This document shows positions 5,524 to 63,741 of a stretch of DNA of 64,000 nt, piece by piece (within the stretch, counting starts at the first letter, position 1; each line of letters starts with the position of its first letter). This stretch comes from an uncultured Eubacteriales bacterium (GTDB lineage Bacteria; Acidobacteriota; Aminicenantia; Aminicenantales; UBA8522), in contig CAYGXD010000003.1 in NCBI GenBank assembly GCA_964353705.1, forward strand, positions 891-64,890, read 5' to 3'. The translations under genes were made by a program, and so were the position numbers. Below the pieces are notes generated by a model that did not search any database, was not told the DNA's origin, and saw only the letters and a program-made list of their open reading frames with translations.

Positions 5524-7281
5524 TCATCGCGGCAAAATGGTTGCCGGCTCCGCAAATTCTCCGCCATCCAAGCCTGCAGGCTGACTGTGTTCTCTATTAA
5601 TTCGCTCGATCATTTGTGCTGCGTTCTCATTATCAGGATTCAACTCCAGCGATTTCTTGTAGTACTGGAGTGAAAGATCCGTTTTTTTCATGTTGTAGCA
5701 GCATTCGCCCAGGCTGTCCCAGACATTGAAGGAGCTTGGAAAAAGCATGGTATTAAGAAGAAAGACCCGATACGCTCTTTCCAGATCGCCGTTCTGCATT
5801 AAAACATAGCCTTTGTCATTATTGCCGTCCTCAAGGATTCCGGGATCCAGCACTGTCCACCACTCATATTCCTTATATTTCTGCTTCAGCTGTTGATAAT
5901 GAACAACCGCCGCTTCCGCTCCTTCATCGGCCGCGAATTCTGCAACCGATCTCCAATCTCCACTCAAGATCAAATCCACAGCCGGATCAACTCCGTTGAA
6001 GTAATCATGGCTCGAAAACGCCGCCGGAAAATGGGGGATAAAATATTCAGGGTTGCTGAAAGGCCATCTGTTTGTATAGTGCTGACTGGCAATCCAAAGA
6101 GGAAAGCCGCTGTTGGGCAGATTGCCGGCAGGTCGGCTGTTGGAAAACAAGTCGGCGCCGCAGGCATCCGGCTCTCCCACAAATAAAGCCTTCGTATGAA
6201 CCGCGAGCTCATACATGAATATGGAAGCGGCACTGTACGTTTTCTTGCTCGAGATGACATAAAGACCGCCTTCTTTATTGATAAACTCCCTTCTGATGAT
6301 CTGATTAAGAAAGGGAAGTATCAAGGTGCCGTTGCCTCCATTGTTGTAGCGAAGGTCAATAATGAACTTGCTGATGTTCTGGGCATTTTGGTCGATATAA
6401 TCCCACATCCGGGCGGAGAACCGGGCAAAGCTTTCCTCATGATTGGGCTGGTTCATGACTTGATTGAATTGGAAATATATCGTTTTTTCTTTGACGAGGT
6501 GGTCAAACCAGTAGAATTGGATCCCCTGTCCTTGATTCCTAAAATGCAGCGACCCCCTTTCCCCAAGCCTCGCAAGGGGGCTGACATATTCCCCTTTTGT
6601 CGGGCCGACATTAAGAGGGAAGCTCCATCCGTACTCCACAGGGCTGTCCTCAAAGAGGGAAGAGAGGGTGAGTTTCGCCGGTTCTTCAGTACCCAGGACC
6701 AACTCCAGGTCCATATGGTCGGGGTTATCAATGACTTTCAAACCAGACAATACGCGGGCAAAGGAAATTCCATTCAAAGCCCAGTATCTTCTTCCAAACT
6801 TGTTGTCACCGCTGACGGCTTTTTCTATCGCGGCCAAGACATTTTCTATGGGCCGGCCATTTATGGCCCTTAAACGAGCCCCCAGAAACTTCTGCTGTTC
6901 TTTCTTGATTGTCGTGATGTAAACTCCATCTGTGAATTCAGACACCCGGAAGGGGAACCTCAAGTCAAGGAGATGGAAAAGGCCGTCATCCGACAAACCC
7001 GTATGCCCGTCTTCAATAATCGCCACTATTTTTCTTAGGGCCCAGTAGCATTCCAAATCCGCTCTTGATTGAGCGATTTCACGACGGGATTCGGCCACGA
7101 TCGAATCGAATCTTGTTTTGTCTGTTTTATAGAAAAGATGAGGATGCTTTGATTCTAATTTCGTGACGACGAATTCAAGATCTTCCAACCATTGTGCCGT
7201 TGTCAGCCGTTTTTCTTGGGAGGCAACAGGCTGGAAAGCAGCGGCCAAGATCAGGACTAAATAGAGAATCGGCCCTTTCAT
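5524..7281 (-). CDS. S41-family peptidase (C-terminal processing/tricorn-core type) with C-terminal TPR repeats, secreted
   Basis: RBS GAGAAAGGAG before ATG at 7281 (MKGPILYLVLILAAAF signal). IIDLRYNNGGNGTLILPF and SAASIFMYELA...VGEPD match the S41 LIxDLRxNxGG...SASExF...VGE pattern. C-terminus is TPR-like (YYKKSLELNPDNENAAQ). Confidence 0.7.
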   Translation of the reverse strand: MKGPILYLVLILAAAFQPVASQEKRLTTAQWLEDLEFVVTKLESKHPHLFYKTDKTRFDSIVAESRREIAQSRADLECYWALRKIVAIIEDGHTGLSDDGLFHLLDLRFPFRVSEFTDGVYITTIKKEQQKFLGARLRAINGRPIENVLAAIEKAVSGDNKFGRRYWALNGISFARVLSGLKVIDNPDHMDLELVLGTEEPAKLTLSSLFEDSPVEYGWSFPLNVGPTKGEYVSPLARLGERGSLHFRNQGQGIQFYWFDHLVKEKTIYFQFNQVMNQPNHEESFARFSARMWDYIDQNAQNISKFIIDLRYNNGGNGTLILPFLNQIIRREFINKEGGLYVISSKKTYSAASIFMYELAVHTKALFVGEPDACGADLFSNSRPAGNLPNSGFPLWIASQHYTNRWPFSNPEYFIPHFPAAFSSHDYFNGVDPAVDLILSGDWRSVAEFAADEGAEAAVVHYQQLKQKYKEYEWWTVLDPGILEDGNNDKGYVLMQNGDLERAYRVFLLNTMLFPSSFNVWDSLGECCYNMKKTDLSLQYYKKSLELNPDNENAAQMIERINREHSQPAGLDGGEFAEPATILPR

Positions 7282-7393
7282 AACGGCTCCTTTCTCTAGA
7301 GATAGGCACACCCATATGATCCTTTTGCCCCCAGATACGCGGGCTGGTAGTGATCCGATATTCCGTAAAACGGCCCGCAGGTTATGATTTGGG

Positions 7394-9802
7394 CTATGGC
7401 CATGGGGGATATTTTCCTAATCGAGTGAACAGCCTGAACCGGTCGCCCTTGTTCTCGGGACAAATGACCCGCGATGGCAGCTTCTTTGCGGCCGCTTCCC
7501 GAGCGAAGGCGCCGTACATGTATTCCCGGTTATAGGCATGGATCGGGAAGACGACACGAGGCTTGAGCGATTCGGCCTGCGGGAACTTCCCGATGAAGGC
7601 GAGGTCGATCGTTCCCGCCTTTTCGAGGAAATAATCCATATCGGCGCGGAAAGTATCGATCGGGCCCATATAGTCGCCCGAATGATAGATCGCTAGACCA
7701 TCCACTTTGACCAGATAGGCGACCTCGGGAACGTCGTTGTGCTCGCAATTCACGGTGAAGATCTCCATCGCCCCGAGTGTCTTCGTGGCCCTGGGCGCCG
7801 GCATGTCGATCGTGCGTTCCCCTTTCCTCGCATTCCAGCCGAAGGCGTAAGTGATATCTTTGATTATCGGACGCCAGGAGAGGATCACCGGATCGAAGTG
7901 ATCGCCATGGGCATGGGAGATAAAGACGGTGACATCTTGGTCTTTGATTTCATCCGGATTGACGAAGCCATTGGCCAGGGATGGCTTCTCCGGCCGCGGC
8001 CCGCCTCGGCTGAAGTAATCGAAAATGAGGAGACGGGTCCGGGTTTTGACCGCGAAACCGCAATGTCCCAGGGACCAGACGATCGCCTCTCCCTCCTTGA
8101 GGGGCTTGGCCAGTTGTGCGGCGACATCCTGAGGCGGTGGCCCCGGCGTCGGCTCCGCTCCGGCATCCTTAAGCTTTCCCGCGATGGCCGGGTACGAATA
8201 TTCCCCGGCCAGGTCAAGCGGAGTCCTCCCTTGCCCGTCTTTTATCTTTGGATCCGCCCCTTTTTGGAGAAGAAAGCTGACCATATCGGTCCGTCCTTTT
8301 TTTACGGCCAAGTGCAAGGGAGTTGACCCCTCAGGGTCCAGGGCATCGACCATGGCGCCCTTGTCAAGGAGCATCTGGGCGATTTCAAAGCTGCCCCCTT
8401 GAGCGGCCCGCTGGAAAGGCGTCCGGCCGGATTCGTCCTTCAGGTTGACGGGAACCCCTTTCCCCAACACAAACGATGCCGGCTGAGTCATTCCGAGATA
8501 GGCCACCCGATGAAGCGGATATTTGTCGAGTAGATCCCTGTTCTTGAGGGCTTCAGCCCGGGGCCAAAGCTTTTCGACTAGCCCGACAAAACCGTTCCCC
8601 AAAGGAAAGGTCAGAGGCGTTTCATTGAGTTTGTTCCGGACGTCGAGCTTCGCGCCGTGCTCGAGCAGCCATTCGATGACGTCTTCGCGGCCGGCCTGGC
8701 TGACATAGAGGAGGGGAGTCGATCCTTCTTCGTTCAGGGCGTTGACGTCCGCGCCGCGCTTGATCAGGACGTCGAGGAGGTGCAGATTGCCTGAGAACGC
8801 CGCGTCATGAAGGGGGGTGGACTGATAATAATCACGGCTCATGACGTTCGCTCCACGGGAGAGAAGGAAATCCGCGGCCTTATCCGACCCGGCTTCCGCG
8901 GCCTTGAGAAGCGGCGTACGGCCGTAGCGGTCAGGACCGTCAATAGGAAAACCGGCCTTTACGAGGCGGTCCATCAAGTCGATCATGTCGCCGGCCGCGG
9001 CGCAATGTAGGAGGCTCCGGCCGTCGCGACAGACGGCCTTCACGTCGGCGCCCTCAGCGATCAGCATGTCCACCATGTCTTGGCGTCCTCCCGAAGCGGC
9101 AAAGTGGAGGGGAGTTTGGCCGAGGTCATCGGCGGCGTTGACGTTCGTACCGCCGGCGAGCAGTTTTTCGACCAGGGCCTTCAACCCTCCCGCCGCCGCC
9201 GAATGAATCAGGGTTCCGCCGCCGTCATTTTTTGATGCCAAGTCAGCCCCGTGGGCCAGGAGGTAATCAACCAGCGAGAGGAATCCGGCCGAGGCCGCCC
9301 GGTGGAGGAGGGCTCTCCCCGCCTCTCCTGTGGTCTCGACCTTAAGGCCGCCTTCAAGAAGCGTCCCGACCGCCTCCGGATGCCGACCGTAGAAGGCTGA
9401 TTCGAGCGTGGATACGCCGCGTGTGCTCAGGGCATTGGGGTCGGCGCCGGCTTTGATCAGGGCCCGGGCCGCTTCGACCTGCCCGGCCCAGGCCGCCCAG
9501 TGGAGCGGCGTGAATCCGTCGGGATCGGTCGCCTTGATATCGGCGCCGTTGGCGATGAGGAAGGCGACGATTTCCATATTCCCCAAGTCGCAGGCGAAAT
9601 GGAGAGGGGTCCGTCCCCGGTCGTCTTTTTCGTCGACGGCCTTGGGATCTGCGACGACGAGCACCTTGACCTTGGCCAGGTCGCCCGCCCGGACAGCGTC
9701 ATGGATCTCTTGAGCACCGATAGTGATCGCAAGAACGGATATGAAAACTGGGAGGATAGCACTCCTTTTCATGGAAACGAGAATCCTCTTCAAATAGCTC
9801 AT
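7394..9802 (-). CDS. secreted ankyrin-repeat protein fused to a C-terminal metallo-beta-lactamase-fold domain
   Basis: Hydrophobic N-terminus. More than 12 ankyrin repeats (TPLHFAC, TPLHWAA, TLIHSAA...). C-terminal ~230 aa carry HCGFAVKT...ISHAHGDHFDP (MBL HxHxDH motif). RBS GGAGAAAGGGG lies upstream of ATG 9802. Confidence 0.7.
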   Translation of the reverse strand: MSYLKRILVSMKRSAILPVFISVLAITIGAQEIHDAVRAGDLAKVKVLVVADPKAVDEKDDRGRTPLHFACDLGNMEIVAFLIANGADIKATDPDGFTPLHWAAWAGQVEAARALIKAGADPNALSTRGVSTLESAFYGRHPEAVGTLLEGGLKVETTGEAGRALLHRAASAGFLSLVDYLLAHGADLASKNDGGGTLIHSAAAGGLKALVEKLLAGGTNVNAADDLGQTPLHFAASGGRQDMVDMLIAEGADVKAVCRDGRSLLHCAAAGDMIDLMDRLVKAGFPIDGPDRYGRTPLLKAAEAGSDKAADFLLSRGANVMSRDYYQSTPLHDAAFSGNLHLLDVLIKRGADVNALNEEGSTPLLYVSQAGREDVIEWLLEHGAKLDVRNKLNETPLTFPLGNGFVGLVEKLWPRAEALKNRDLLDKYPLHRVAYLGMTQPASFVLGKGVPVNLKDESGRTPFQRAAQGGSFEIAQMLLDKGAMVDALDPEGSTPLHLAVKKGRTDMVSFLLQKGADPKIKDGQGRTPLDLAGEYSYPAIAGKLKDAGAEPTPGPPPQDVAAQLAKPLKEGEAIVWSLGHCGFAVKTRTRLLIFDYFSRGGPRPEKPSLANGFVNPDEIKDQDVTVFISHAHGDHFDPVILSWRPIIKDITYAFGWNARKGERTIDMPAPRATKTLGAMEIFTVNCEHNDVPEVAYLVKVDGLAIYHSGDYMGPIDTFRADMDYFLEKAGTIDLAFIGKFPQAESLKPRVVFPIHAYNREYMYGAFAREAAAKKLPSRVICPENKGDRFRLFTRLGKYPPWP

Positions 9803-45147: not shown

Positions 45148-46176
45148 CTACTTGCTGACGTCCGAATCCTCGTCGGGCCAATTGTCGTCGGTGCGCTTCC
45201 AGGTCTTGTCCGGGTTGTAGCGTTCCATCGCTTTGACAATCTCGAGCGAGTCCGGCCCCAGGTCTTTTTCGTAGACGATCCCGTCATAGCTGACCATAAA
45301 GGTCTTGACTCCCGTAACTTGGTATTCGATTGGAACAGCGACGAGGGCGAATCCTCCGATCATCAGCCCCTTGATCACATAGTCGAGCTCCCCCAGAGGC
45401 GCCGCCGGCCCCTGCCCTTTTAAGACTTTGAAATAGTAGCCGTGGTAACCGGATCCCTTGACGGAGTAACCTTCCTCGATCGCGCGCGCAATCGCTTCGC
45501 TGATGGGGCCGCCCGGGGTGCCATCCGCATTCTTCCAAACCAAGCCATCCTTTTTCCCGGGAGTGCTGAAGATCTTCTGGGCGTACTGGTTGATCCCGGT
45601 GAGCTCGCGGGCCATCAACGCGTATTCGTATTGAGCTTCGACGAAGCCCCGGCAGATCTGGATGGCGTCCAGCTCATTGGCTCCAATGCGCCGGAAGACG
45701 ACCTCGTCGAGGCCCGCCGGGGAGTCAAAATACCACTTGCCCTCCTTTTTAACGAGCGGAACCGGAAATGGCCAATCCAGCTCGCCGACGATCAGGACCG
45801 CACGTTCCGGTGTCTTCGGATCCAGGTACACGGTGTGCTTCTCTCGAGCCTTTGCGGCGAAAGCTTCCACGGTGTTCCTATCCTGCACAGGGTCAGCCGC
45901 AGGCAGGAGATCCTTGCCCTCGGGACCGAAAATCTCCAAAAGAGCCGGCCCATCATAGCGCTCCGCTGCCTCAATCAAGGCAGCGGCCGCTTGCTGCGGT
46001 GTATCAAAAGCTTTTTGAGCGGAAGGGGCAGACGCTGAGGCTTTCTGCGCGGACTGCGGCTCCGCGGCTGAAATGACGCTCAGGGCGCCGGATAGGGCGG
46101 CCACGCCAATGGAGAGAAGAGCGCGCCGTACGACTTTCACGCCTGTTATTGAACTCATAGCCTTATCCTTGTTCAT
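45148..46176 (-). CDS. secreted DUF2950-like protein
   Basis: AAGGAGG lies 9 nt before ATG 46176. Signal peptide. Consistently adjacent to the DUF3300-like gene, as this pair usually is. Confidence 0.5.
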   Translation of the reverse strand: MNKDKAMSSITGVKVVRRALLSIGVAALSGALSVISAAEPQSAQKASASAPSAQKAFDTPQQAAAALIEAAERYDGPALLEIFGPEGKDLLPAADPVQDRNTVEAFAAKAREKHTVYLDPKTPERAVLIVGELDWPFPVPLVKKEGKWYFDSPAGLDEVVFRRIGANELDAIQICRGFVEAQYEYALMARELTGINQYAQKIFSTPGKKDGLVWKNADGTPGGPISEAIARAIEEGYSVKGSGYHGYYFKVLKGQGPAAPLGELDYVIKGLMIGGFALVAVPIEYQVTGVKTFMVSYDGIVYEKDLGPDSLEIVKAMERYNPDKTWKRTDDNWPDEDSDVSK

Positions 46177-46184
46177 GGTCTGGT

Positions 46185-47420
46185 TTACCTCCTTCTCCCG
46201 CCGCCGCCACGCGAGCCTCCAAAGCTCGAAGATCCCCGGGAACTGCTGGCTCGTGCGGAGCGGCCGCTTGTGCCGCTGGAAGCCCCGCCGAAGGCACCGG
46301 AGCTGCGCGATTTTCCGCCGTTGGAAACGCTCCGGCTGCCTACGCGGTCCCCGCCTCCACCGCCGCTGCGGTCCATCGTGCTGCCCTGTCGACTGCTTCC
46401 CGTTCTTGCCTGCTGCTGGCGCGCGCTGGACTGCCGCGCCGACATGGAATCGCCGCGCGCCGTCCCGCCGAATTTGTTGGCTGTCGCCCTGTCCGAGTAG
46501 GGAGCGCCGCCGCGATGCTGCGGGTTGTGCTGCCAGTTGTTGCCGCCGCCGCGGTTGATATTGGTGTTCCTATTGAAATCGTTGTGCACATTGATGTTGA
46601 CATCATTGTGCCCCCAGCCGCAGCCCCAGCCCCAGCCGCCGCCGAACGCGGCTCCCATGAACACTCCGATCCCGAACGAAATCGCCACGCCTGCGGCATA
46701 ATACCCCGGCGGGGGATAATAGATCGGCGGATAGGGATAGACAGGCGGGCCATAGATGACTGTCGGGTTATAGCTGGGAACATAGATCACCTGCGGATCA
46801 GACTGCTCGATGACGATCACCTCCTTGGTATCGACCACCTTGGTTTCCACCTTCTGCTGCTCGGAGGGTTTCAAGTTCCCCTTATCCTGGGCCTTTTTCC
46901 TCATGCGTTGGACCGCGTCCATGACATCAGCCTGCTGCGCCAGAAAAGCATTCCCCAGATCCGTAGCCCACTTGATGTCATCCGCCAGCCGCTTGACGAC
47001 ATCCGGAAGCGACGCCATGGCCTGGATGCTCGGATCCCAATCCTGCTTCTTCACCGCATCCGCCAGCGCCTGGTCTTTCAGGTCCTTGTTCTTCTCCAGC
47101 CACTGTTGAAGCTGGACGATCTCCAGGGGATATGTCGAGGCGACGAGGACCTGGCTGAGAAGCGGGTCGGGATAGAGGGCGATGGGAGCCACCAGCGAAT
47201 CCAGTTGATCAGTGGACAGTTTCACGGCGGCCTCGGGTGCGGCCGCTGTCTGCTCAGTGGCCGTCTGCGCCGCAATTGCCGAGATCATCCACTCTCCCGG
47301 CGCCAGGAGTGCGGCACAGAGAACGGCTAAAAAGACCTGAAAAGTCCGCCTCTCACGCCGGATTTTGGACAATAGTCTTAAGGTTATCGGAGGGGAGAAA
47401 AGCCTTGCTCTGACTGCCAT
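46185..47420 (-). CDS. secreted DUF3300-like protein with a Gly/Ser/Arg-rich low-complexity C-terminus
   Basis: AAGGAG lies 8 nt before ATG 47420. VAPIALYPDPLLSQVLVASTYPLEIVQLQQWL matches the DUF3300 core. The last ~150 aa are GGG/SS/RR repeats. Confidence 0.5.
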   Translation of the reverse strand: MAVRARLFSPPITLRLLSKIRRERRTFQVFLAVLCAALLAPGEWMISAIAAQTATEQTAAAPEAAVKLSTDQLDSLVAPIALYPDPLLSQVLVASTYPLEIVQLQQWLEKNKDLKDQALADAVKKQDWDPSIQAMASLPDVVKRLADDIKWATDLGNAFLAQQADVMDAVQRMRKKAQDKGNLKPSEQQKVETKVVDTKEVIVIEQSDPQVIYVPSYNPTVIYGPPVYPYPPIYYPPPGYYAAGVAISFGIGVFMGAAFGGGWGWGCGWGHNDVNINVHNDFNRNTNINRGGGNNWQHNPQHRGGAPYSDRATANKFGGTARGDSMSARQSSARQQQARTGSSRQGSTMDRSGGGGGDRVGSRSVSNGGKSRSSGAFGGASSGTSGRSARASSSRGSSSFGGSRGGGGRRR

Positions 47421-47590: not shown

Positions 47591-48715
47591 CTATTTCGCG
47601 CCGAAGTATTTGACGTCCTTTTTTTCTTCCTTTTCTGGTGCGGCGTTCGGATCCCATTTTCCAGCCATCCAATCCTCGTATTTTTTGAACATATAGCTGC
47701 GGAACTCTTTTCTGAGTTGAGGACCTTGTTCCGATTGGGCCAGATACTCCTGCATCAGTTTAAGCCGTCCGAGACCGGCCACCTGGATCAATTTCACTAT
47801 GCCGTCATAGGCCTCCCTGTAGGTTTTAGCGGGAAAGGTGACCGTGCGGTCTTTGTAATCGATCCCGGGAACCCCCTCCAGGATGCTGTGGTCGGCCGGA
47901 AATTGCGTCCGAAGCGCTGCCGTAAGCGGTTCGGTGAAGGCCAGATATTTCGCCCGGGAGAGGTTCTCGACAGCCTTTTTCGCTTTTTCCTGTATTTCGG
48001 CATGGACGACATCCAGGGGATAGAGCTCGGCATCGAACCAGTTGATCGCCTTTTTAACGGTGACATACTCCAGCCAGTCCAGGTACTCGAGCTGCACTTT
48101 CAAAACGTCATCCCCCGAGGCAAAGATGACCGGGACGCCGAACCGGCCCCATGAATAAGCGATGATCTCGGTTTCGTTTATGGATTTGCCGTTGATGATC
48201 CAGTCACAACCCCCGTTGTAGGTGTGAGCGATGAAGCCGCTTGAGCCTGTCTTCGCGTGCATGCAGACGACGGCGACGGCATCGTATTTTTCGGTTTCGG
48301 GCAGGTCGCTATAGGGGTCGAAGGGAGTATCTTTGTAGATCACCTGGGCCCGTGGATCGAGTTTGCCAAGATCGACATCGGGTTCCGGATTCCCGCTGCC
48401 GTGGGCATCAGTGACATCGACGACGTCGGCTCCGCCGGCAAACAATCCGGCGATGACGGCGTTGACATCCTGAGTCAGATTGTCCCTGCCTGTTTGATAG
48501 TCCGGATTTCCAAACCCGGTTTGCTCCATGCGGTTGACACCTGAAATTCCCTCCATGTCGTAATAGAGAAGGATTTTGGTCGTCCCGTCCGCATCCGGAC
48601 GAACGGCGTTTACAGTATAGGCGGGAATATCCGTTGCCGCTTTTTGTTCACGGCAGCAAAAAAACAGACCCGCAATCCACATAGCCAGCACGCCTGTCAA
48701 CAACACTTTTCTCAT
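47591..48715 (-). CDS. M55-family D-aminopeptidase (DppA-like) with a C-terminal extension, secreted
   Basis: KILLYYDMEGISGV, TDAHGSGNP and VCMHAKTGS align with the DppA pattern SVDMEGISG / NDSH / GYHA. About 100 extra C-terminal residues. Confidence 0.5.
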   Translation of the reverse strand: MRKVLLTGVLAMWIAGLFFCCREQKAATDIPAYTVNAVRPDADGTTKILLYYDMEGISGVNRMEQTGFGNPDYQTGRDNLTQDVNAVIAGLFAGGADVVDVTDAHGSGNPEPDVDLGKLDPRAQVIYKDTPFDPYSDLPETEKYDAVAVVCMHAKTGSSGFIAHTYNGGCDWIINGKSINETEIIAYSWGRFGVPVIFASGDDVLKVQLEYLDWLEYVTVKKAINWFDAELYPLDVVHAEIQEKAKKAVENLSRAKYLAFTEPLTAALRTQFPADHSILEGVPGIDYKDRTVTFPAKTYREAYDGIVKLIQVAGLGRLKLMQEYLAQSEQGPQLRKEFRSYMFKKYEDWMAGKWDPNAAPEKEEKKDVKYFGAK

Positions 48716-52925: not shown

Positions 52926-54125
52926 ATGAATCAGAGAAAGAAAAACGCACCAATTTCTCGCTGTGTTTTGACCGCTTTGCTTTCGCTCTTTCTGGTTTTG
53001 CTTTCGTCGGCCTGTGCAAATAAGGAAGTATCCAAAAACCGGCAGCTTTCACAAATTACCCTGAAATTTAGGGAAAAGCTTCAGGTCTTCAAGAACCAGG
53101 TCGGATTTCCTGGAGCCACAGCGGCATTTGCTTTGCCGGAGGGGCCCTTTTCGTCAGTCGCCGTAGGAAATTCTGACGAGGAGAACAAGATCGAGATGAA
53201 GCCCCTGGATCGTATGCCAGCGGGGAGCGTTGGAAAGGCATTTGTGGCCGCATTGGCCATCCTCCTGGCCCAAGAGGGCAGGTTCAATCTGGACGACAAG
53301 ATCGAGAAGTGGCTGGGCGATGAAGACTGGTTTCCGAGGTTACCCAACCACGAAGATATAACCATCCGGACCCTCTTGAACCACAGGAGCGGCCTTAAGG
53401 ACCACGCCTTTGAGTCTGAAGAATTCGCCCGGGATCTGGGAAAAATGATGGCCACAAACCAGGACGCGGTCATCACGCCCGAACAATTGGTATCTTATGT
53501 TTTGGACATCCCTCCGCTTTTCAAAGTGGGGACGGATTTTCATTATTCAGATACAAATTATATCCTCGTTGGGATCATCATCGAGAAGGCCACACGATCG
53601 TCCTATTATGAGGAGCTAACGAACCGCACCTTGGCCAAGTTTAGCTTAAACAATACTCTCCCCGCGGATAAAAGGGAGCTCCCCGGAATTGTTCCCGGTT
53701 ATCTGGATCCCAACGGTCCATTCGGATTGTCAATAAAGAAAACCATCCAAGATGGACGGTTGATTTTTAATCCTCAGACAGAATGGACAGGCGGGGGGTT
53801 GATCTCGACTTCCGAGGATCTTGCACGATGGGCAAAGCTTTTGTACGGAGGGAAGCTCTCAGCAAAGCCTTATCTGGAGGAGATGTTGGACTTCGGCGGA
53901 TTCCAATATGGGTTGGGGGCAGGATTGAGAGAAACCGAGCTGGGGAGAGCGTACGGACACAGCGGTTATTTTCCCGGGTACAACACGGCTATGGGCTACT
54001 TTCCGGACCATAAAATAGCTGTGGCCATCCAAATCAACAGGGATTACGATGTGGGAGATCCCTCATCCCAGTTGGTTGAATTAGCCAAAGTCGTTATCGA
54101 AGAGCTTAAACCTCGAACCAAATAA
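52926..54125 (+). CDS. serine hydrolase of the beta-lactamase/PBP class C family, lipoprotein
   Basis: GAGGAGG RBS. Lipobox LLSSAC. SxxK motif AGSVGKAF and a YxN-like YSDTNY region. 399 aa. Confidence 0.7.
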   Translation: MNQRKKNAPISRCVLTALLSLFLVLLSSACANKEVSKNRQLSQITLKFREKLQVFKNQVGFPGATAAFALPEGPFSSVAVGNSDEENKIEMKPLDRMPAGSVGKAFVAALAILLAQEGRFNLDDKIEKWLGDEDWFPRLPNHEDITIRTLLNHRSGLKDHAFESEEFARDLGKMMATNQDAVITPEQLVSYVLDIPPLFKVGTDFHYSDTNYILVGIIIEKATRSSYYEELTNRTLAKFSLNNTLPADKRELPGIVPGYLDPNGPFGLSIKKTIQDGRLIFNPQTEWTGGGLISTSEDLARWAKLLYGGKLSAKPYLEEMLDFGGFQYGLGAGLRETELGRAYGHSGYFPGYNTAMGYFPDHKIAVAIQINRDYDVGDPSSQLVELAKVVIEELKPRTK

Positions 54126-54133
54126 TAGGAGAA

Positions 54134-56206
54134 TTAGCCGCCGCCGCCTGTCTTGGCTTTGGAAATCCTGTGCTTGTCGAACCAGCCGATCACATGCTGG
54201 ATTTTGGAGAGGTGATGGCTTGGACGGCTGAAGATCCCGTGGCTTTCTTCCGGGAACCGGACTAGGACAGATTCCACCCCTTTGAGTTTGAGACCCATAT
54301 AATACTGTTCGGATTCAGACATCGGCGTCCTAAAGTCTTGTTCCCCCGTAATCAAAATCGTGGGTGTCTTGACGTTTCCCACCAGAGATATGGGCGAGTA
54401 TTTCATATAGTGCTCTGAATGATCCCACGGAAATCCCGGGAAATTGTTTTTGATCCCCGCGTTCCCAATATCCGAAGTCAGGGTCAGGCTGTACCAATTG
54501 ACGACCGGATAAAGAGCGGCAGCCCCGCGAAACCGGTCGGTTTTCCCAATACACCAGCAGGTCAGAGTTCCCCCCGCGCTTCCACCGGTAATGAAGATGT
54601 TGTCCTCATCTATGGACCCTTTTTTTATGACCTCATCCACGCCCGAGATGAGATCGTAGTAGTCGTCGGAGGGAAACGTGTGGCTCGTTAAGTTGCTGAA
54701 TTCCTCGCCGTAGCTCGTGCTCCCCCTGTAATTGGGATAAAAGACGACATATCCGGCTGACGCCAAGAGCTGATGCTCGATGCTGAACCGGTCCCCATAA
54801 TTATTCCATGGTCCCCCATGTATCTCCAGGATCAAAGGATATTTCCGGGAAGAGCTAAAGTCCGGCGGCTTCACGATCCACCCCTGGATCTGGCGGCCGT
54901 CCTTTGAGCACGAGTACCAAATCTCTTCCACGGCGCCAAGCTTCTTCGACGCCAGAATATCCTCATTGATGGAGGTGATGAGCTTCACCTCTGGAGTTTG
55001 AGGTGTCCCGACCGCCAAATCACTGGGATGGTCAGGCCTCGAATAGGTGAAGGCAAAATGGCCATTGGGAGCCATGGTGTATGAGGCGCCCAGTATAATG
55101 CCGTAGGCCGTTCGGCCGTCTCCGATATTGCCGGCGAGTTTTTTCACCTGGCCAGCCAAAGAAACAGAGGCCAACGAGGTATGTCCTTTATCGTCGTAAA
55201 GAAAATAAAGTTCTTGACTGTCGGAGGTCCACTTTATCAGGTTGACGCTTCGATCGAGGTTTCCGGTCAATGAGCGAGCAGCACTGCCGTCTCTGTTCAT
55301 CACATAAAGCTCCGCGACATGATCCGCTTGGTATTTCTCATCAAATCCGGTGGAGGCGATATATTTCCCATTCGGGGAAGCGGTGGGAGAACTATCTTCT
55401 CCTCTTCGATTGGTTAAGGCCCTGATCTTTCCATCCGAGATTTCTAGCTCGAAGACCTCGGTATCTGATGTTGTGATTTCCCAGTTGTCACGGCGATCTG
55501 CAGACAAAATAATATGTTTCCCATCCGGTGTCCATTCTCCTCCAGGATGATTGAACTTCCCCTCGGTAATCTTTCGCGGAGTTCCGCCCGCTGAGGAAAT
55601 GATGTACAGATGGAGATATCCGGGAACATAGCCGACACCATCGAAGCGGTAAAGCGCTCTGTCTATGATTATAGGAGGCGGAGCCCAATTGGCATCTGGA
55701 GGAGGCGGAGGCAGGGTGGCAATAGCCGGAGGCATGGATAAGTCAACGGTAGCAAAGGTCACCTGTTTTCCGTCCGGAGACCAGGAGGCATTCATGGGAG
55801 GTACGGGCAGATCGGTAAGTTGAATGACCTGGTCGGTGTCTATCCCGCGCTTATAGAGTTGGGCCGCTCCTCCCTTGTCGGAGATGTAAATCATCTGGCT
55901 CCCATCAGGGGACCAACGGGGAGACTTGTCAGCCGAGAGGCCGGCCGTGAGAGGACGGTTCCCGGAGCCATCGAAATCAATTATCCACAGGTTGGAATAG
56001 AACTTATCGGACTTGATATCCGCAAAATTGCGAACATAGATTATTCTTTTGCCGTCGGGGGAAATCTGCGGATCTGATATCCATTCGAAATTGTAGTAAT
56101 CCTGAGCCGTAAAATACGTGGATTGGTCTTGAGCGGCAAGAGAAATGGACCTGGGAATTATGAAAATGAGAAACAAAACAGACATCTTTTTAAAATCTTC
56201 TAGCAT
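54134..56206 (-). CDS. S9-family serine peptidase (prolyl oligopeptidase/acylaminoacyl-peptidase type) with N-terminal PD40 propeller
   Basis: Signal peptide. WSPDGSQMIY/WSPDGKQVTF propeller blades. Catalytic GGSAGG (ITGGSAGGTLTC) plus downstream D and H regions. 690 aa. Confidence 0.8.
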   Translation of the reverse strand: MLEDFKKMSVLFLIFIIPRSISLAAQDQSTYFTAQDYYNFEWISDPQISPDGKRIIYVRNFADIKSDKFYSNLWIIDFDGSGNRPLTAGLSADKSPRWSPDGSQMIYISDKGGAAQLYKRGIDTDQVIQLTDLPVPPMNASWSPDGKQVTFATVDLSMPPAIATLPPPPPDANWAPPPIIIDRALYRFDGVGYVPGYLHLYIISSAGGTPRKITEGKFNHPGGEWTPDGKHIILSADRRDNWEITTSDTEVFELEISDGKIRALTNRRGEDSSPTASPNGKYIASTGFDEKYQADHVAELYVMNRDGSAARSLTGNLDRSVNLIKWTSDSQELYFLYDDKGHTSLASVSLAGQVKKLAGNIGDGRTAYGIILGASYTMAPNGHFAFTYSRPDHPSDLAVGTPQTPEVKLITSINEDILASKKLGAVEEIWYSCSKDGRQIQGWIVKPPDFSSSRKYPLILEIHGGPWNNYGDRFSIEHQLLASAGYVVFYPNYRGSTSYGEEFSNLTSHTFPSDDYYDLISGVDEVIKKGSIDEDNIFITGGSAGGTLTCWCIGKTDRFRGAAALYPVVNWYSLTLTSDIGNAGIKNNFPGFPWDHSEHYMKYSPISLVGNVKTPTILITGEQDFRTPMSESEQYYMGLKLKGVESVLVRFPEESHGIFSRPSHHLSKIQHVIGWFDKHRISKAKTGGGG

Positions 56207-58321: not shown

Positions 58322-61300
58322 CTATCGAGCCCGGAGGGCGGCCAGCCTCTTTCGGGCCTCCTCCACCTGGGCGAGCCCCTGGTCCGCCTCTTTCCAGACC
58401 TCGAGGACTTTCTCATACTGCTTGACGGCTGCCCGGAGCTGGCCCTTTTTCTCGTAAAGCCGGGCCAGTCTAAGGCGGCTGAATGAATGGACCAGGCTGA
58501 ATTCTGTTTTTTCCGGGTCGAGGAGTCGCTCGTATTCGGCAACAGCCTTGTCCAGGTCACCTTGGCTCTCGAAAGCCCTGGCGACAAAATCATCAGTGTA
58601 GGGCATACTCCTCTGAATGATGGTGATCGGGACTGAGAGATTCAGGGCCGGCAGGGAGCGTTTCCGGAATTCCGAGGCGGCCTCGTCCGCCAGGCCACGA
58701 GCCAGAAGAGTCTCCGCGGATAGGAGCAGGTAAACATCCCGTACCTCCCCGATTCCCTCGGAGCCGGCGGATTCGTCGAGGAACGACTTGACCTCGGCCA
58801 GCTTTGACCCGGCTTCGTCCAGGCGGTTTTCCTTGAGGTCCAGAAGACCGAGATAAACTCGGGTCAACGCCTTATTCAAGGGTTCCGGCCGGATCCGGTA
58901 CTGATTGCGGTTGTCATAAAAGGCCTGGACATACTTACGGAAAAGGTCGCTTTTGCCCCATTCATAGGAGATCCATTCCAGTTGTTTGAACTTGCTGCAG
59001 AAATAGGAATAGTTCTGGATGTTCCTGTAGAGATCCCCCGCGCGCTCGAACGCGCTCAGGGCGAGTTCAACCTTTCCCTGGAGAGAGTAGTACAGACCCT
59101 TGAACTCAAGGGCATAAGCCCGCATTCCATCGGACTGGGCCGCGGGGATGAAGTCGTCGATCCAGCGCAGGGCTTCGGCATAATTTTCTCTCAAGGCATA
59201 ACAGTAGGCGATCCGGAACTGGGCGCTGAAATCCGGCTTGATCCGGACAACCTCCTTGAATTTTTCGATGGCCTTGTCCAGCTTTCCCATTTTGAAGTAG
59301 AGTTCGCCCATGGAGTCATGGGGATTGGCGTCTCCGGGCGAAACCGAGGCGTATTTTTTAAAATAGGCAAGAGCTCCGCCAAAGTCGTTCTTGGACGCGT
59401 AAGAATAGGCCAGCCAGTTCATGGCCGCGCCGAACTTGGGGTCGAGCGCTAGGGCTTTTTTAAATTCCGGGATGGCCCGGTCGAACGCTCCTTGACCATA
59501 GTAATACTCTCCCAGGCTGACCAAAGCCCTTTTCTCTTGGGGGTATTCGGCGGCGATCCGCTCGAGCAGGTTAAGAGAACTTTCCGCCTTGCCCTCGAGA
59601 TATCGGGCCGTGAGGGCTTCGGCATAGAGGCCCTCCTTCCCCGCCAGTCTTTTGCCGAATTCCCGCGCCTTTTTAAAGGCGTCCCGCGCCCCCGCAAGGT
59701 CGCTCTGCGCCAGGTTCGCCTGTCCCAAGTAGAAGTAGGCCATGGCGAACTCAGGGTCGAGAGCGACCGCCATTTCCAGAAACCTGCGGGCGTCGGGATA
59801 ATACCATTTCTCAAAAGCCTCCCTTCCCTGGAGAAAGAGGTTGTACGCCTCCATGGATCCGGTCGTGACCTCCATAATGGGTGTGGCGGCGGCCTGTGTC
59901 ACACCCTCCGCCTGGATTCCTCTGGCGATCGCCCGACTCAGCTCATCGATCTGCGTTTTGAGGATGCTGTCCACGCCTTCGCCCCGGGAGCCGGCTGTCT
60001 TGATGAGCTGCTTGGACCTCACATCCAGAACCTTGGCGTCGGTGGCAAATGTATTGCCTCCCTTGGTGAAAGTGCCCAGGATAATCGCCTCAATGCCGTC
60101 CAGCCGGCAGAGCTCGAATCCGAGGTCACTGTCGATGACCTTGACGTTCTCGCGGTTCGACCTTTTGAGAAGGTCATAAAGCCTTTCCCATGTCGTGACA
60201 CGAAAGAACTTTGACTGCTCCAGGCTGGTGATCAGCAGGTTGGGGATCGCGTCCTGGAGATAGTCATAGCTTGGATCACCGGTCTGGTTGCTGAAACTGA
60301 CGACGGCAACGGCCAGTTTCTCCCCGGGAACGGCCGGAGGGTTTCTCCGGAAGGACTTCCAGGCAAAAAACGCGGCCGCCAGGACGGCCAGGAAGGCAAA
60401 AGCGAAAGCCCCCCTCTTTCGCAGCGCTCGGGCCCTGCTACCGGGGGGGAACGGACTCGGCCTTTCCCGGACAGGGCACGTGGAGCCGGTCACGATCGAT
60501 GTCGGGGCTTCCTCCAGGTCCCGGAGGAGTTCCTCGGCGCTCTGATACCGGCTCTCCCGTTTCTTCTCCAGGCACCTGAGAATAATCCGGTCCAGCGAGC
60601 CCGGGAGCTCAGGGTTTATCGACCGCGGCGGCCTGGGGAGCTCAGTGATCTGTTGAGCAAGGATTTCCGGGCGAGAATCGCCTATGAAGGGGACTCCTCC
60701 CGTGACCATCTCATAAAGAATGACACCCAGGGAATAGATGTCGGAGCGTTCGTCGGCTTCCTGTCCTGCGGCCTGCTCCGGACTCAGGTACTCGGGAGTG
60801 CCGGGAATCGCCGCGGCCCCGGTCCCCAAATCCATGATCCGCGCGTTTCCCTCCTGGTCGACCGTGATGTTCGTAGGCTCGAGGTTGCCGTGGATAACTC
60901 CCTGCCGGTGGGCCTCCGCGAGCCCCGCGCAAACCTGTTGGGCCAGCCGGACGCTCGCGCCCAAGCTCAGCCGCTTCGTCATCTGGATCATGCTCTTCAG
61001 GTTCTCTCCCTGGACGTACTCCATGGTGATGTAGTAAGTTTCTTTTTCTTGACCCAGGGGGTAGACACGGCAAATATTCCGGTGGGAAATCTTTCCGGTG
61101 ATCTTCAAGGCGTTCTGAAGCCGGGCGATAGTTCTGCTGTCCGCGGCGATCTCGGGCAGAATGATCTTCAGGACGACCGTTTCGTTGATTTTCGCGTCGA
61201 AAGCCTTGAAGACTTTGCCCATTCGCCCCGACCCCAGGTCTTCGATGATCTTGTACCGGCCGGCAAAAATCGAACCGGGACCGAGCTGGTCACGCGGCTC

Positions 61301-61417
61301 GGCGAGGGACCAGGTCTCGGCTTCAGGGATAGCCTGATCCCGTCCGAAGCGGAAGCCGCACCGGGAACAAAAGCGGGCGCCCTCCGCGTTCTCTGCTTGG
61401 CATAGAGGACACTTCAT
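58322..61417 (-). CDS. Ser/Thr protein kinase with N-terminal zinc ribbon, a TM segment and C-terminal TPR repeats
   Basis: MKCPLCQAENAEGARFCSRCGF, then Hanks kinase motifs (GRMGKVFKA ATP-binding loop, HRNICRV, DLGTG), a hydrophobic stretch FAFAFLAVLAAAFFAW, and about 10 TPR units. Confidence 0.8.
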   Translation of the reverse strand: MKCPLCQAENAEGARFCSRCGFRFGRDQAIPEAETWSLAEPRDQLGPGSIFAGRYKIIEDLGSGRMGKVFKAFDAKINETVVLKIILPEIAADSRTIARLQNALKITGKISHRNICRVYPLGQEKETYYITMEYVQGENLKSMIQMTKRLSLGASVRLAQQVCAGLAEAHRQGVIHGNLEPTNITVDQEGNARIMDLGTGAAAIPGTPEYLSPEQAAGQEADERSDIYSLGVILYEMVTGGVPFIGDSRPEILAQQITELPRPPRSINPELPGSLDRIILRCLEKKRESRYQSAEELLRDLEEAPTSIVTGSTCPVRERPSPFPPGSRARALRKRGAFAFAFLAVLAAAFFAWKSFRRNPPAVPGEKLAVAVVSFSNQTGDPSYDYLQDAIPNLLITSLEQSKFFRVTTWERLYDLLKRSNRENVKVIDSDLGFELCRLDGIEAIILGTFTKGGNTFATDAKVLDVRSKQLIKTAGSRGEGVDSILKTQIDELSRAIARGIQAEGVTQAAATPIMEVTTGSMEAYNLFLQGREAFEKWYYPDARRFLEMAVALDPEFAMAYFYLGQANLAQSDLAGARDAFKKAREFGKRLAGKEGLYAEALTARYLEGKAESSLNLLERIAAEYPQEKRALVSLGEYYYGQGAFDRAIPEFKKALALDPKFGAAMNWLAYSYASKNDFGGALAYFKKYASVSPGDANPHDSMGELYFKMGKLDKAIEKFKEVVRIKPDFSAQFRIAYCYALRENYAEALRWIDDFIPAAQSDGMRAYALEFKGLYYSLQGKVELALSAFERAGDLYRNIQNYSYFCSKFKQLEWISYEWGKSDLFRKYVQAFYDNRNQYRIRPEPLNKALTRVYLGLLDLKENRLDEAGSKLAEVKSFLDESAGSEGIGEVRDVYLLLSAETLLARGLADEAASEFRKRSLPALNLSVPITIIQRSMPYTDDFVARAFESQGDLDKAVAEYERLLDPEKTEFSLVHSFSRLRLARLYEKKGQLRAAVKQYEKVLEVWKEADQGLAQVEEARKRLAALRAR

Positions 61418-61485: not shown

Positions 61486-61690
61486 TCAGCTTTCTTCGGC
61501 CTTGGCCACCGAGCAGATCTTGTCCCCGTTCTCCAGGTTGATCAGACGGACGCCCTGAGTGGCGCGGCCGACCGCCCTGACCTGTTTGGTCTGGATGCGG
61601 ATGACTTTGCCGCTCAAGGTGACAATCAGCAGGTCGTCTTCCGCGACGCCCAGCACGGCCACGGCCGGCCCGATCTTGGGCGTAGACGAC
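61486..61690 (-). repeat. copy C (longest) of the GyrA-C-terminal-tail-like segment; about 68 codons of a GyrA beta-pinwheel-blade-like 3-prime fragment
   Basis: Minus translation gives PKIGPAVAVLGVAEDDLLIVTLSGKVIRIQTKQVRAVGRATQGVRLINLENGDKICSVAKAEES-stop. GRATQGVxLIxL plus the acidic tail are typical of a GyrA/ParC C-terminal domain. No upstream start and no long ORF in that frame. Confidence 0.55.
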
Positions 61691-61791
61691 GAGGGGTAAG
61701 GAGGTCAGGGCGGAAGTGGAGAGAGATTTGACATGCTGATCCCGGTCGGATAGTCTTTCCTAAAACAAGATCCCTAGAGAAAGGAGGAAAC

Positions 61792-63741
61792 ATGATAAGG
61801 AAGATGTTTTGCCTGCTTGTGATTTTCGGGTTCATAGCCTGCGGAATCGCAGATGCGAAGATTGGGGCAGGAGACCAATCAAAATCTCAGCCAGGGCCCC
61901 GGCCCATAACGACGAACAAGGACAGAGTTCTCATGGCGGCCGTCCAGGCAAGGATCGCCGCGCCACAGCCCTCTCGAGGCTACATAACAACCTGGGACGG
62001 AAGGCCGAAGTTCGCGATAGGAATCGGAGGGATCAACTATAACCTCAAGCTTGGGGATCGAGTCTTCGGTTGGGCGGCCGCCGACCGGGCGACGGTCGGA
62101 GTCGCGGCGGAGGCCGTCGAGGAAGGCCGGTCCGGCAGGTCCTGGAACACGCTCACCTCGATCGGGAACGAAGTCAAAATCCTGACTGGCCAAGCGAGCG
62201 GCGAGAAGGGAGTCGTCATCGGCAAGTTCCTGGATATCGTCAGCTTCGGGAACTTCGACCTGATCCATTTCGACGACTCGGCCCTGGAGAAACTTGCGAT
62301 CGGAGACCTCGTCCAGGTGAAAGCCAGCGGGGCCGGGCTTGAGATCGAAGGTTTCAAGGACGTCTTCATCCACGGCCTGGCGCCCGATGTCCTTGAAAAA
62401 TTCGGCCTCCAGGATGTCGGCGGAAGGCTCGAGGTTCCCGTCGTTAAGGCGATCCCGGCCGAGATCATGGGACAGGGAGCTGGCATGGGCAGCCTCACCG
62501 GCGTCTGGCATATCCAGACCTGCTACTCTCCCGATATCAAAAAATACGGCCTGGACGAGCTTCGGTTCGGGGACCTTGTCCTGCTTCAAGACGTCCAGAC
62601 CGACTACGGCAAAGGCTATTACAAGGGGGGCGCCACGGTCGGAGTCGTGAGCAGCGGGCCGAGCGACATGTCGGGCCTGGGGATCGGAGTAACGCCGGTG
62701 CTCTCGACCAGGTTCGGCAAGCTCGTGCCGCGGATTGATCCGGGCTCGAATATCGGTCGTTATCTTGGCATAGAAATGGCGGCCGCGCGAATCGAAGCCG
62801 GCCGAATCTCTTCTTCCGAGGCGGCCGCTCCCCTCGCCCAAAAAGCCAAGAGCTCGCCATCCGGCCTCCTGAGGACCAACAAGGACGAGCTGATCATGAC
62901 GGCTGTCCAGGGAGTTGTTTCGCCCACGGAAGGCGCGGAGTATTCGACGAGCTACGACGGCCGACCGGTCCAGACACTCGGCATGGGTTCCATCAACTAT
63001 ACGGTTTCGATCGGAGATTCCACATACGGCTGGGCCGCCTCGGACCATGTGGAGCCCGACGTCACCATCCAGGGGCAGGAGAAGCCGTCCCCCTGGGAAG
63101 CAGCGGTGGCGTCACTCGCCTGTATCGGGAACGAGGCGCTTGTCATTTCGGGCGAGGCGACCGGATCCAAAGGGATCTATCTCGGAAGACACGCCGGTTC
63201 GGATGACAAAGTCTGGTTTCCCAAGGAAGTCAAGGAGAAACTCGCCCTGAACGACAAGGTCCAGGTCAGGGCCAAAGGAGTCGGGCTCAAGATCCTGGGC
63301 TTCGAGGATGTGAGGGTGAACAAGGTTTCTCCGGAGCTGCTCGAGAACATGGGGATCACGATCGAAGGCGGACAGCTGGTCGTCCCCGTGGTGATGGAAA
63401 TTCCCGCCCACATCATGGGCTCGGGGCTCGGGTTTCCGTTTATCGAGGCGCTGGATTACGATATTCAAACGACCTGCCCGGAAATCGTCGAGACGTACAA
63501 TCTCAAGAAACTCAGGCTGGGGGACGTGGTGGCGATCAGGGACGCCTATGATGTTTACGGCCCCGGCAGGTATGAAGGCGCGGTGACGATCGCCACCATC
63601 ATCCATGGTTTCAGCAATCTCTCCGGACACGGACCGGGCGTCAACGTGGTGCTGAGCGCGCTGCCTGGAAAGATCAAAACGCGCCTCGACCCGGAGGCCA
63701 ATACGGCCTATTATCTGGGGATTAGGGCCAGGCCCAGATAA
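61792..63741 (+). CDS. secreted protein of unknown function built from two homologous ~300 aa halves
   Basis: AAAGGAGGAAAC RBS. Signal peptide MIRKMFCLLVIFGFIACG. Half 1 (TNKDRVLMAAVQ...WDGRPKFAIGIGGINYNLKLGDRVFGWAAAD) is repeated as half 2 (TNKDELIMTAVQ...YDGRPVQTLGMGSINYTVSIGDSTYGWAASD), with further collinear matches (GEKGVVIGKF / GSKGIYLGRH; VPVVKAIPAEIMG / VPVVMEIPAHIMG). Confidence 0.6.
   Translation: MIRKMFCLLVIFGFIACGIADAKIGAGDQSKSQPGPRPITTNKDRVLMAAVQARIAAPQPSRGYITTWDGRPKFAIGIGGINYNLKLGDRVFGWAAADRATVGVAAEAVEEGRSGRSWNTLTSIGNEVKILTGQASGEKGVVIGKFLDIVSFGNFDLIHFDDSALEKLAIGDLVQVKASGAGLEIEGFKDVFIHGLAPDVLEKFGLQDVGGRLEVPVVKAIPAEIMGQGAGMGSLTGVWHIQTCYSPDIKKYGLDELRFGDLVLLQDVQTDYGKGYYKGGATVGVVSSGPSDMSGLGIGVTPVLSTRFGKLVPRIDPGSNIGRYLGIEMAAARIEAGRISSSEAAAPLAQKAKSSPSGLLRTNKDELIMTAVQGVVSPTEGAEYSTSYDGRPVQTLGMGSINYTVSIGDSTYGWAASDHVEPDVTIQGQEKPSPWEAAVASLACIGNEALVISGEATGSKGIYLGRHAGSDDKVWFPKEVKEKLALNDKVQVRAKGVGLKILGFEDVRVNKVSPELLENMGITIEGGQLVVPVVMEIPAHIMGSGLGFPFIEALDYDIQTTCPEIVETYNLKKLRLGDVVAIRDAYDVYGPGRYEGAVTIATIIHGFSNLSGHGPGVNVVLSALPGKIKTRLDPEANTAYYLGIRARPR

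Follow-up and report, generated by a model that had tools for sequence, protein, structure and literature searches.

What can a bacterium do with two diverged copies of the same 300-residue domain in one protein, behind what looks like an export signal, and how did the copies come to be joined? The question is raised by a gene near the end of the 64,000-nucleotide stretch of DNA analyzed here (the window), taken from contig CAYGXD010000003.1 of an uncultured bacterium whose GTDB lineage lies within the Aminicenantia. A preliminary description of the gene took its product to be a secreted protein of no known family, perhaps a pseudo-dimeric binding protein, that arose by an ancient intragenic duplication. 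The protein proved to belong to DUF4438, and public databases already label it 'DUF4438 domain-containing': the gene is not new, and the family is known but uncharacterized. What is new is the reading of its architecture, as a fused pair of paralogues, with asymmetric loss of a conserved site and relocation outside the cytoplasm. This overturns nothing; it supplies testable constraints on an orphan structural-genomics family.

Two unequal DUF4438 units in one chain

The internal homology of the protein is real, collinear, and far beyond chance, and it extends over the whole unit. Aligned by BLASTP, the two halves share 120 identities in 304 positions (39%, E = 8e-69) or, with a second cut, 116 in 291 (40%, E = 2e-69). 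The six peptide motifs that the preliminary description had paired were all found, at residues 41/362, 77/397, and 215/531, and its claim of two collinear homologous halves of about 300 amino acids (aa) is borne out. A comparison of the N-terminal with the C-terminal domain by hhalign, looking for an older repeat within one unit, gave a probability of 22% and covered only a GD-box-like motif.

That the domain belongs to no known family is wrong, since both halves match DUF4438 in Pfam and the fold has been solved, as TM1086 of Thermotoga maritima (PDB 3DCL and 3N99). Pfam model PF14505 (DUF4438, N-terminal domain) matches with 227.7 bits against a cut-off of 24.9, and PF20999 (DUF4438_C, C-terminal domain) with 226.4 bits against 27, each in two stretches, one per half. 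The C-half finds TM1086 by phmmer with E = 4e-62 over residues 358-642, and the protein shares the three-dimensional fold of TM1086. It is, by hidden Markov model (HMM) and by fold, a bona fide member of DUF4438, each half having been shown to be a complete unit made of small beta-barrels. The individual barrels were compared with KOW and RIFT-type folds, namely the N-terminal barrel of F1-ATPase, EF-Tu domain II, Gar1, L35Ae, and Spt5 KOW. What was found does not amount to the strong match with a WELL-CHARACTERISED family which the preliminary description regarded as fatal to its claim, because DUF4438 has neither an assigned function nor a functional literature.

Other identities were set aside. 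The sole match in NCBIfam, to VioC, was rejected as meaningless (E = 0.22, with 10.5 bits where the cut-off is 760). Identity as a solute-binding protein was rejected as well, there being no match to an HMM of such a family and no such fold in the protein, and membership in the M42 peptidases was considered and rejected.

In its build, the protein departs from the rest of the family. TM1086 and nearly all of its relatives consist of a single unit of about 285-300 aa that begins directly at a TNKD motif and lacks a signal peptide. The window protein, at 649 aa, instead has two units per chain, one of them without the conserved polar residues, and adds a signal peptide. The halves are called here A-type (N-half) and B-type (C-half, the canonical form), terms that extend to the products of the separate, adjacent genes that encode the two units in other organisms (split pairs, described in the next section).

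The difference between A and B lies in a set of residues that are near-invariant in the family: in the numbering of the window protein, H419, E421, P422, C444, H467, D555, D557, H605, H613, and P615, a putative active site or site for a ligand or metal. In a residue table covering 126 sequences, each of them is at least 88% conserved over the 88 canonical sequences (50 solo genes, 9 split B genes, and 29 fused C-halves), and all are present in 29 of 29 fused C-halves. The set is also invariant in 40 tandem proteins and, with the exception of C444 and D555 (at least 90%) and of H605, in 14 diverse relatives. The fused N-halves have other residues at all of these positions, namely, in the window protein, R99, T101, V102, S123, F152, V238, H240, S288, L296, and I298; V238 is N or H in most relatives. 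The A members of split pairs have already lost H419, H605, and H613 in nearly all cases (position 419 is R, K, or N; 605 is S, C, or T; 613 is mostly Q or K, with His in 1 of 9), but they still have E421 and P422, and mostly H467 and D557, which are gone from the fused N-half.

One might expect a half that has lost so much to be decaying. Judged by its conservation, the N-half is not: among the 40 tandem proteins, it shows a mean pairwise identity of 0.72 with 68 invariant columns, as compared to 0.75 and 96 for the C-half, and it has invariant residues specific to its own clade (W68, T101, H194, and D248, for example). The two halves evidently are under similarly strong constraint. The linker between them has a mean identity of 0.17 and no invariant column. 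AlphaFold gave the full chain a predicted template-modelling score (pTM) of 0.77, despite the disordered linkers, which suggests that the two halves pack together; to this extent, the pseudo-dimeric build in the preliminary description finds support. The pattern as a whole would be that of an active subunit accompanied by a conserved, non-catalytic paralogue. Because the constellation of His, Asp, Glu, and Cys was lost asymmetrically, an enzyme joined to a pseudo-enzyme seems likelier than a plain binding protein.

Fusion of a gene pair and gain of a predicted signal peptide

The closest relatives of the protein are all built as it is. The best 120 homologues are without exception tandem, about 586-665 aa in length, and at least 64% identical to it, and those with a source name come from Candidatus Aminicenantes or Acidobacteria. 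Public collections contain an identical protein, and the 90% cluster to which it belongs includes a member from a metagenome-assembled genome (MAG) of Candidatus Aminicenantes. Farther out, the tandem form is rare. An exhaustive HMMER scan of 1.84 billion representatives, clustered at 50% identity, returned 580 DUF4438 clusters at E <= 0.001 and 90 at E <= 1e-30; among the best 150 of the 580, only P0121 is a full-length tandem, the others being single units of about 285-300 aa or fragments.

GTDB species genomes, scanned with a family alignment of 14 closer sequences, gave at least 80 DUF4438 loci out of roughly 565, and these, pooled with metagenome loci found earlier, fall into four architectures. 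Fused genes with a signal peptide occur in Aminicenantes, Saccharicenans, Acidobacteriota, and KSB1. Adjacent A and B genes, often with overlapping stop and start codons, occur mostly in Bathyarchaeia (L040, L042, L043, L046, L047, L049, and L050, of which L046 is labelled Patescibacteria). A fused gene without a signal peptide is represented by L019 only. Solo genes are found in Bathyarchaeia, Clostridia, Tissierellia, Peptostreptococcaceae, Fusobacterium, Sporomusaceae, and others. In one Acidobacteriota MAG (MFD03804.bin.2.150), the fused gene is present twice, intact in L037 (4888-6894) and broken into three open reading frames (ORFs) in L041 (4967-6849), the latter either a pseudogene or the result of frameshifts in assembly.

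The adjacent pairs bear directly on how the tandem arose. Two single-unit representatives each resemble one half more than the other: for P0128, the identity is 51% with the N-half and 39% with the C-half, and for P0122, it is 59% with the C-half and 42% with the N-half. P0128 and its relative P0272 each have a second DUF4438 gene 16-19 nucleotides (nt) downstream on the same strand. In these pairs, the product of the upstream gene has 51-52% identity to the N-half, and that of the downstream gene has 62-63% to the C-half as against 39-42% to the N-half. Adjacent A and B genes are found in L009, L010, and L011, and the order of the genes is the order of the halves in the fused protein. The linker stands where the intergenic gap used to be; at this position, split pairs have either 16-19 nt or an overlap of stop and start. 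In the Bathyarchaeia pairs L040, L043, and L047, the stop of A overlaps the start of B by 1-4 nt, which suggests translational coupling and the equimolar production of both paralogues.

A bootstrapped neighbor-joining tree of 126 DUF4438 units separated the B-type sequences (downstream genes and C-halves) with 97% support, the fused N-halves with 99%, and the fused C-halves with 91%. The sister of each fused clade is made up of the matching genes from one and the same set of split pairs; other, deeper pairs lie outside. Since the trees of the two halves agree and show split pairs as paraphyletic to the fused clade, the parsimonious history would be one of gene duplication, leading to an adjacent A and B pair, followed by a single fusion, with the split state ancestral. 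Comparison of the sequences shows the tandem, by this account, as a fusion of an adjacent pair of paralogues that is still unfused in Bathyarchaeia and other lineages. The split pairs, each orthologous to the N-half and C-half respectively, make two separate cytoplasmic proteins without signal peptides; the window protein is one chain, predicted to be exported.

One fused gene has evidently traveled. L019 (5122-6891) encodes a fused A-B protein of 589 aa in a Bathyarchaeota MAG, is 75% identical to the Aminicenantes proteins, and is nested within the fused clade, and it lies in an AT-rich contig amongst neighbors of Bathyarchaeia type. The nesting together with the archaeal context argues for transfer between a bacterium and an archaeon. 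Its product has the architecture of the window protein but no signal peptide: it begins MIRTNKEKLL, preceded by AT-rich intergenic DNA with stops in all frames, and for this reason it would be cytoplasmic. The signal peptide would have been either lost in L019 or never gained.

The predicted signal peptide is a trait of the fused clade. The window protein begins with MIRKMFCLLVIFGFIACGIADA, followed by K: a basic n-region, an uncharged hydrophobic stretch of 16 residues, and an A-x-A site. There are two K/R within the first 10 residues, the uncharged stretch spans residues 5-20 with a mean hydropathy of 2.7, and the site is A20-D-A22 before K. By a rule calling for K/R in the first 10 residues and an uncharged hydrophobic stretch, 10 residues or longer, that begins by residue 16, a signal-like N-terminus is present in 108 of 118 full-length tandem proteins, as compared to 1 of 150 single-unit relatives (among the best 150 listed). 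The sequence drifts while keeping its character, with a mean identity of 0.25 against 0.72-0.75 in the domains. AlphaFold shows a low-confidence helix at residues 3-23 and then a disordered spacer. Related loci carry genes for Omp85/TamB, OmpA, and TonB-dependent receptors nearby, and because such outer-membrane genes fit a diderm host, the protein would be at least periplasmic. The Aminicenantes fused clade is shown, so far as its N-termini can tell, to have gained a Sec-type signal peptide that almost all other family members lack, and the export proposed in the preliminary description is indeed probable. P0157 (334 aa) is the only full-length single-unit representative among the matches listed with a signal-like N-terminus (MYSSRFKSRQSLLFALASAMFICSLSLHTAAEAQ...), and could represent a second, separate instance of export in the family.

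A working model and its rivals

According to the model that we favor, and to which we would give an even chance, the protein is an exported, single-chain A-B pair whose C-half carries the functional site and whose N-half is an obligatory partner. It would be exported across the inner membrane and cleaved near the junction of A22 and K23, after which the halves would pack together as the A and B subunits did before they were fused. The C-half would supply the single functional site, most likely catalytic and possibly metal-dependent, and the N-half would serve as a non-catalytic partner in structure, substrate positioning, or assembly. The weakest step is the guess that the substrates are peptides or compounds derived from amino acids, in the periplasm or outside the cell.

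Bacterial luciferase, LuxA/LuxB, is a heteromer of paralogues encoded by adjacent genes, of the type that combines an active enzyme with a pseudo-enzyme. By analogy, a duplicated neighbor of a DUF4438 gene may have lost its active-site residues and yet been conserved because the active paralogue cannot do without it. The likeness ends there: fold and chemistry are unrelated, and for DUF4438 both the activity and the physical pairing of A with B are putative.

The guess as to substrate draws on two things, the occasional insertion of DUF4438 genes into operons for dipeptide transport or peptidases and the habits of the hosts. The named hosts of DUF4438 are mostly anaerobic fermenters of peptides and amino acids, a habit that fits the theme without being particular to it. 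Locus L070 has a dpp-like operon with an M55 D-aminopeptidase, two permeases, two ATPases, DUF4438, and SBP_bac_5. In L079, DUF4438 lies between SBP_bac_5 and a prolidase-like peptidase of family M24, and the split pair of L010/L011 abuts genes for an M42 peptidase and an Opp transporter. Near the fused genes are found M28, S10, S15/PepX, amidohydrolase, PTR2, and amino-acid permease genes, and in the window itself, S9 and M55 peptidases are encoded less than 15 kb away. These dpp/opp operons and nearby peptidases, present in a minority of loci, make a weak link to the catabolism of peptides or amino acids.

If one goes further, DUF4438 might be a new class of enzyme made entirely of small beta-barrels, with a His4/Asp2/Glu/Cys center and an obligate pair of catalytic and pseudo-catalytic units, fused and exported by Aminicenantes as an extracellular or periplasmic hydrolase for peptides that are detrital or contain D-amino acids. 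So specific a proposal is doubtful, but if it were true, a previously unrecognized player in the turnover of protein in sediments would have come to light.

Several considerations weigh against the favored model. That the conserved residues of the constellation form one site is conjectured from the alignment of sequences. The signal-peptide call rests on a crude rule of thumb. No conserved operon was found when 795 ORFs from 90 loci were clustered and 90 tight same-strand partners were scanned against Pfam: the commonest family of neighbors appears in 9 of 85 loci, the DUF4438 gene mostly stands alone, and many of its partners bear no relation to peptides (thermosome, PfkB kinase, seryl-tRNA synthetase, GHMP kinase, sulfatase, and two-component systems). 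In most of the Aminicenantes loci examined, a peptidase gene lies near DUF4438, and for this reason the proximity there may be background. A search of the literature turned up no paper on DUF4438 and no biochemical datum for any member. Finally, TM1086 crystals contain 5 and 30 chains, numbers that hint at pentamer-based assemblies, into which an A-B pair would have to fit.

Those same chain numbers enter into a rival reading, somewhat unlikely in our estimation, in which DUF4438 is not an enzyme at all but a module that binds a ligand or metal or assembles into a structure such as a ring or cage. The exported, fused form would then be a binding or scaffold protein of the periplasm or the extracellular space, and the conserved His, Asp, Glu, and Cys would bind metal or hold an oligomer interface. 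The fold suits this reading, consisting only of small KOW/RIFT-like beta-barrels, typical binding modules, and neither Pfam nor NCBIfam recognizes a catalytic fold or motif. The literature on TM1086 consists of a paper on crystallization methods, reporting more than 1 MDa per asymmetric unit in crystals solved after in-situ proteolysis (PMC2661377), which again suggests large assemblies. However, eight near-invariant ionizable residues and glycine-rich loops (MGSGxG and GHGPG), maintained from archaea to Firmicutes, are what one would sooner expect of an active site, the lack of a solute-binding signature does not help a binding role, and it is exactly these residues that disappear from a paralogue that keeps the fold, the classic pattern of enzyme and pseudo-enzyme.

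Two other readings concern the location of the protein and its origin. The hydrophobic N-terminus might be a lipoprotein signal, with Cys17 lipidated, or an uncleaved anchor, so that the protein is tethered to the membrane. The window protein does fit the PS51257 lipobox (G-F-I-A-C17; FIAC occupies residues 14-17, and K/R is present among the first 7), and the 15-residue disordered spacer that follows is of a kind seen in many lipoproteins. The lipobox is found, though, in only this one of 118 tandem homologues and was rejected as a trait of the family; the closest relatives (86-88% identical) lack Cys17, small-x-small motifs end the h-region in 105 of 114 tandem proteins, and the ADA site before K is common to P0002 and P0003, all of which makes tethering improbable. 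Less probable still, and in fact very unlikely, is the origin given in the preliminary description, an internal duplication of a single gene that yielded a pseudo-dimeric secreted binding protein of an undescribed domain. The halves are collinear homologues and the 120 closest homologues are all tandem, as this origin would have it, and there was indeed a duplication. Duplication in place, however, does not accord with the existence of unfused A and B orthologues, encoded side by side and in matching order, with the finding that each half is more similar to the unfused orthologue (51-63% identity) than the two halves are to one another (39-40%), or with the paraphyly of split pairs in both trees. 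The domain, moreover, is in Pfam, with its structure solved.

Why the family deserves attention is plain from its circumstances: it is small (the 580 clusters mentioned above), highly conserved, and still without a function, though its structure was solved in 2008. The fusion of an A-B pair would constrain that function in three ways. The unit works in pairs, by the Rosetta-stone argument that adjacent paralogous genes were later fused; the conserved His, Asp, Glu, and Cys are needed in just one of its two members; and the activity is of use in the cytoplasm (Firmicutes, Thermotoga, and Bathyarchaeia) as well as outside of it (Aminicenantes). Experiments would have residues to mutate, a partner to co-express, and a compartment to assay. 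The family also documents, by itself, the fusion of a gene pair, the gain of an export signal, and transfer between archaea and bacteria.

Surroundings of the gene in the window

The features considered in the window are collected in Table 1, together with examples of split pairs. A scan for promoters and terminators at the DUF4438 gene gave no signal exceeding the expectation from shuffled sequence.

Table 1. Features of the DUF4438 gene and its surroundings (window coordinates unless a locus is named; pLDDT, predicted local distance difference test)
Feature	Position	Strand	Remarks
Shine-Dalgarno AGGAGG	61782..61787	+	4 nt 5' of ATG, read from sequence
Coding sequence, complete; tandem DUF4438 protein, predicted to be exported	61792..63741	+	ORF list; 649 codons plus stop
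Predicted Sec signal peptide, residues 1-22	61792..61857	+	n: MIRK; h: MFCLLVIFGFIACGI; c: ADA, then K; rule-based
Variable disordered spacer, residues 23-37	61858..61902	+	pLDDT <50 for residues 17-32; mean pairwise identity 0.22
N-half, A-type DUF4438 unit, residues 38-330	61903..62781	+	PF14505 + PF20999
Inter-half linker, residues 331-357	62782..62862	+	Ala/Ser-rich, disordered; pLDDT <50 for 333-356
C-half, canonical B-type unit, residues 358-649	62863..63738	+	PF14505 at 384-518, PF20999 at 520-642
Conserved polar constellation of C-half, codon span	63046..63630	+	Putative active or ligand/metal site
gyrA relic, 65 aa, C-terminal end of DNA gyrase subunit A	61489-61683	-	PF03989 DNA_gyraseA_C, E = 3.5e-13
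1031-aa protein: N-terminal zinc ribbon, Ser/Thr protein kinase, predicted membrane segment, long TPR array	58322-61417	-	Divergent from DUF4438 gene
S9 prolyl-oligopeptidase-family peptidase	54134-56206	-	Within 15 kb upstream of DUF4438 gene
Beta-lactamase-fold protein	52926-54125	+	Within 15 kb upstream of DUF4438 gene
M55 D-aminopeptidase	47591-48715	-	Within 15 kb upstream of DUF4438 gene
DUF3300 gene	46185-47420	-	Adjacent to DUF2950 gene; Pfam E = 9.8e-78
DUF2950 gene	45148-46176	-	Adjacent to DUF3300 gene; Pfam E = 7.6e-105
Split pair, L009	6001-6891 / 6911-7786
Split pair, L040	5066-6001 / 6001-6879
Split pair, L043	179-1057 / 1054-1935
Split pair, L047	5132-6010 / 6007-6885

Family M55, represented upstream in the window, is the one that shares an operon with a solo DUF4438 gene in L070, but its presence here may be Aminicenantes background. 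Between the kinase gene and the DUF4438 gene lies what looks like a pseudogene fragment of gyrA: an in-frame stop is found just upstream of the relic, and no ORF covers the remainder of gyrA.

Some confusion of names may be met with in the literature. PF14505, which is DUF4438 in Pfam, is given as 'CAP_assoc_N' in section 2.3 of PMC11836899, apparently a typographical error in the accession and of no relevance to the family. Mentions of 'TM1086' other than in connection with the crystals refer to unrelated strain names of C. elegans.

Farther upstream in the window, the adjacent genes for DUF2950 and DUF3300 are possibly a conserved pair.

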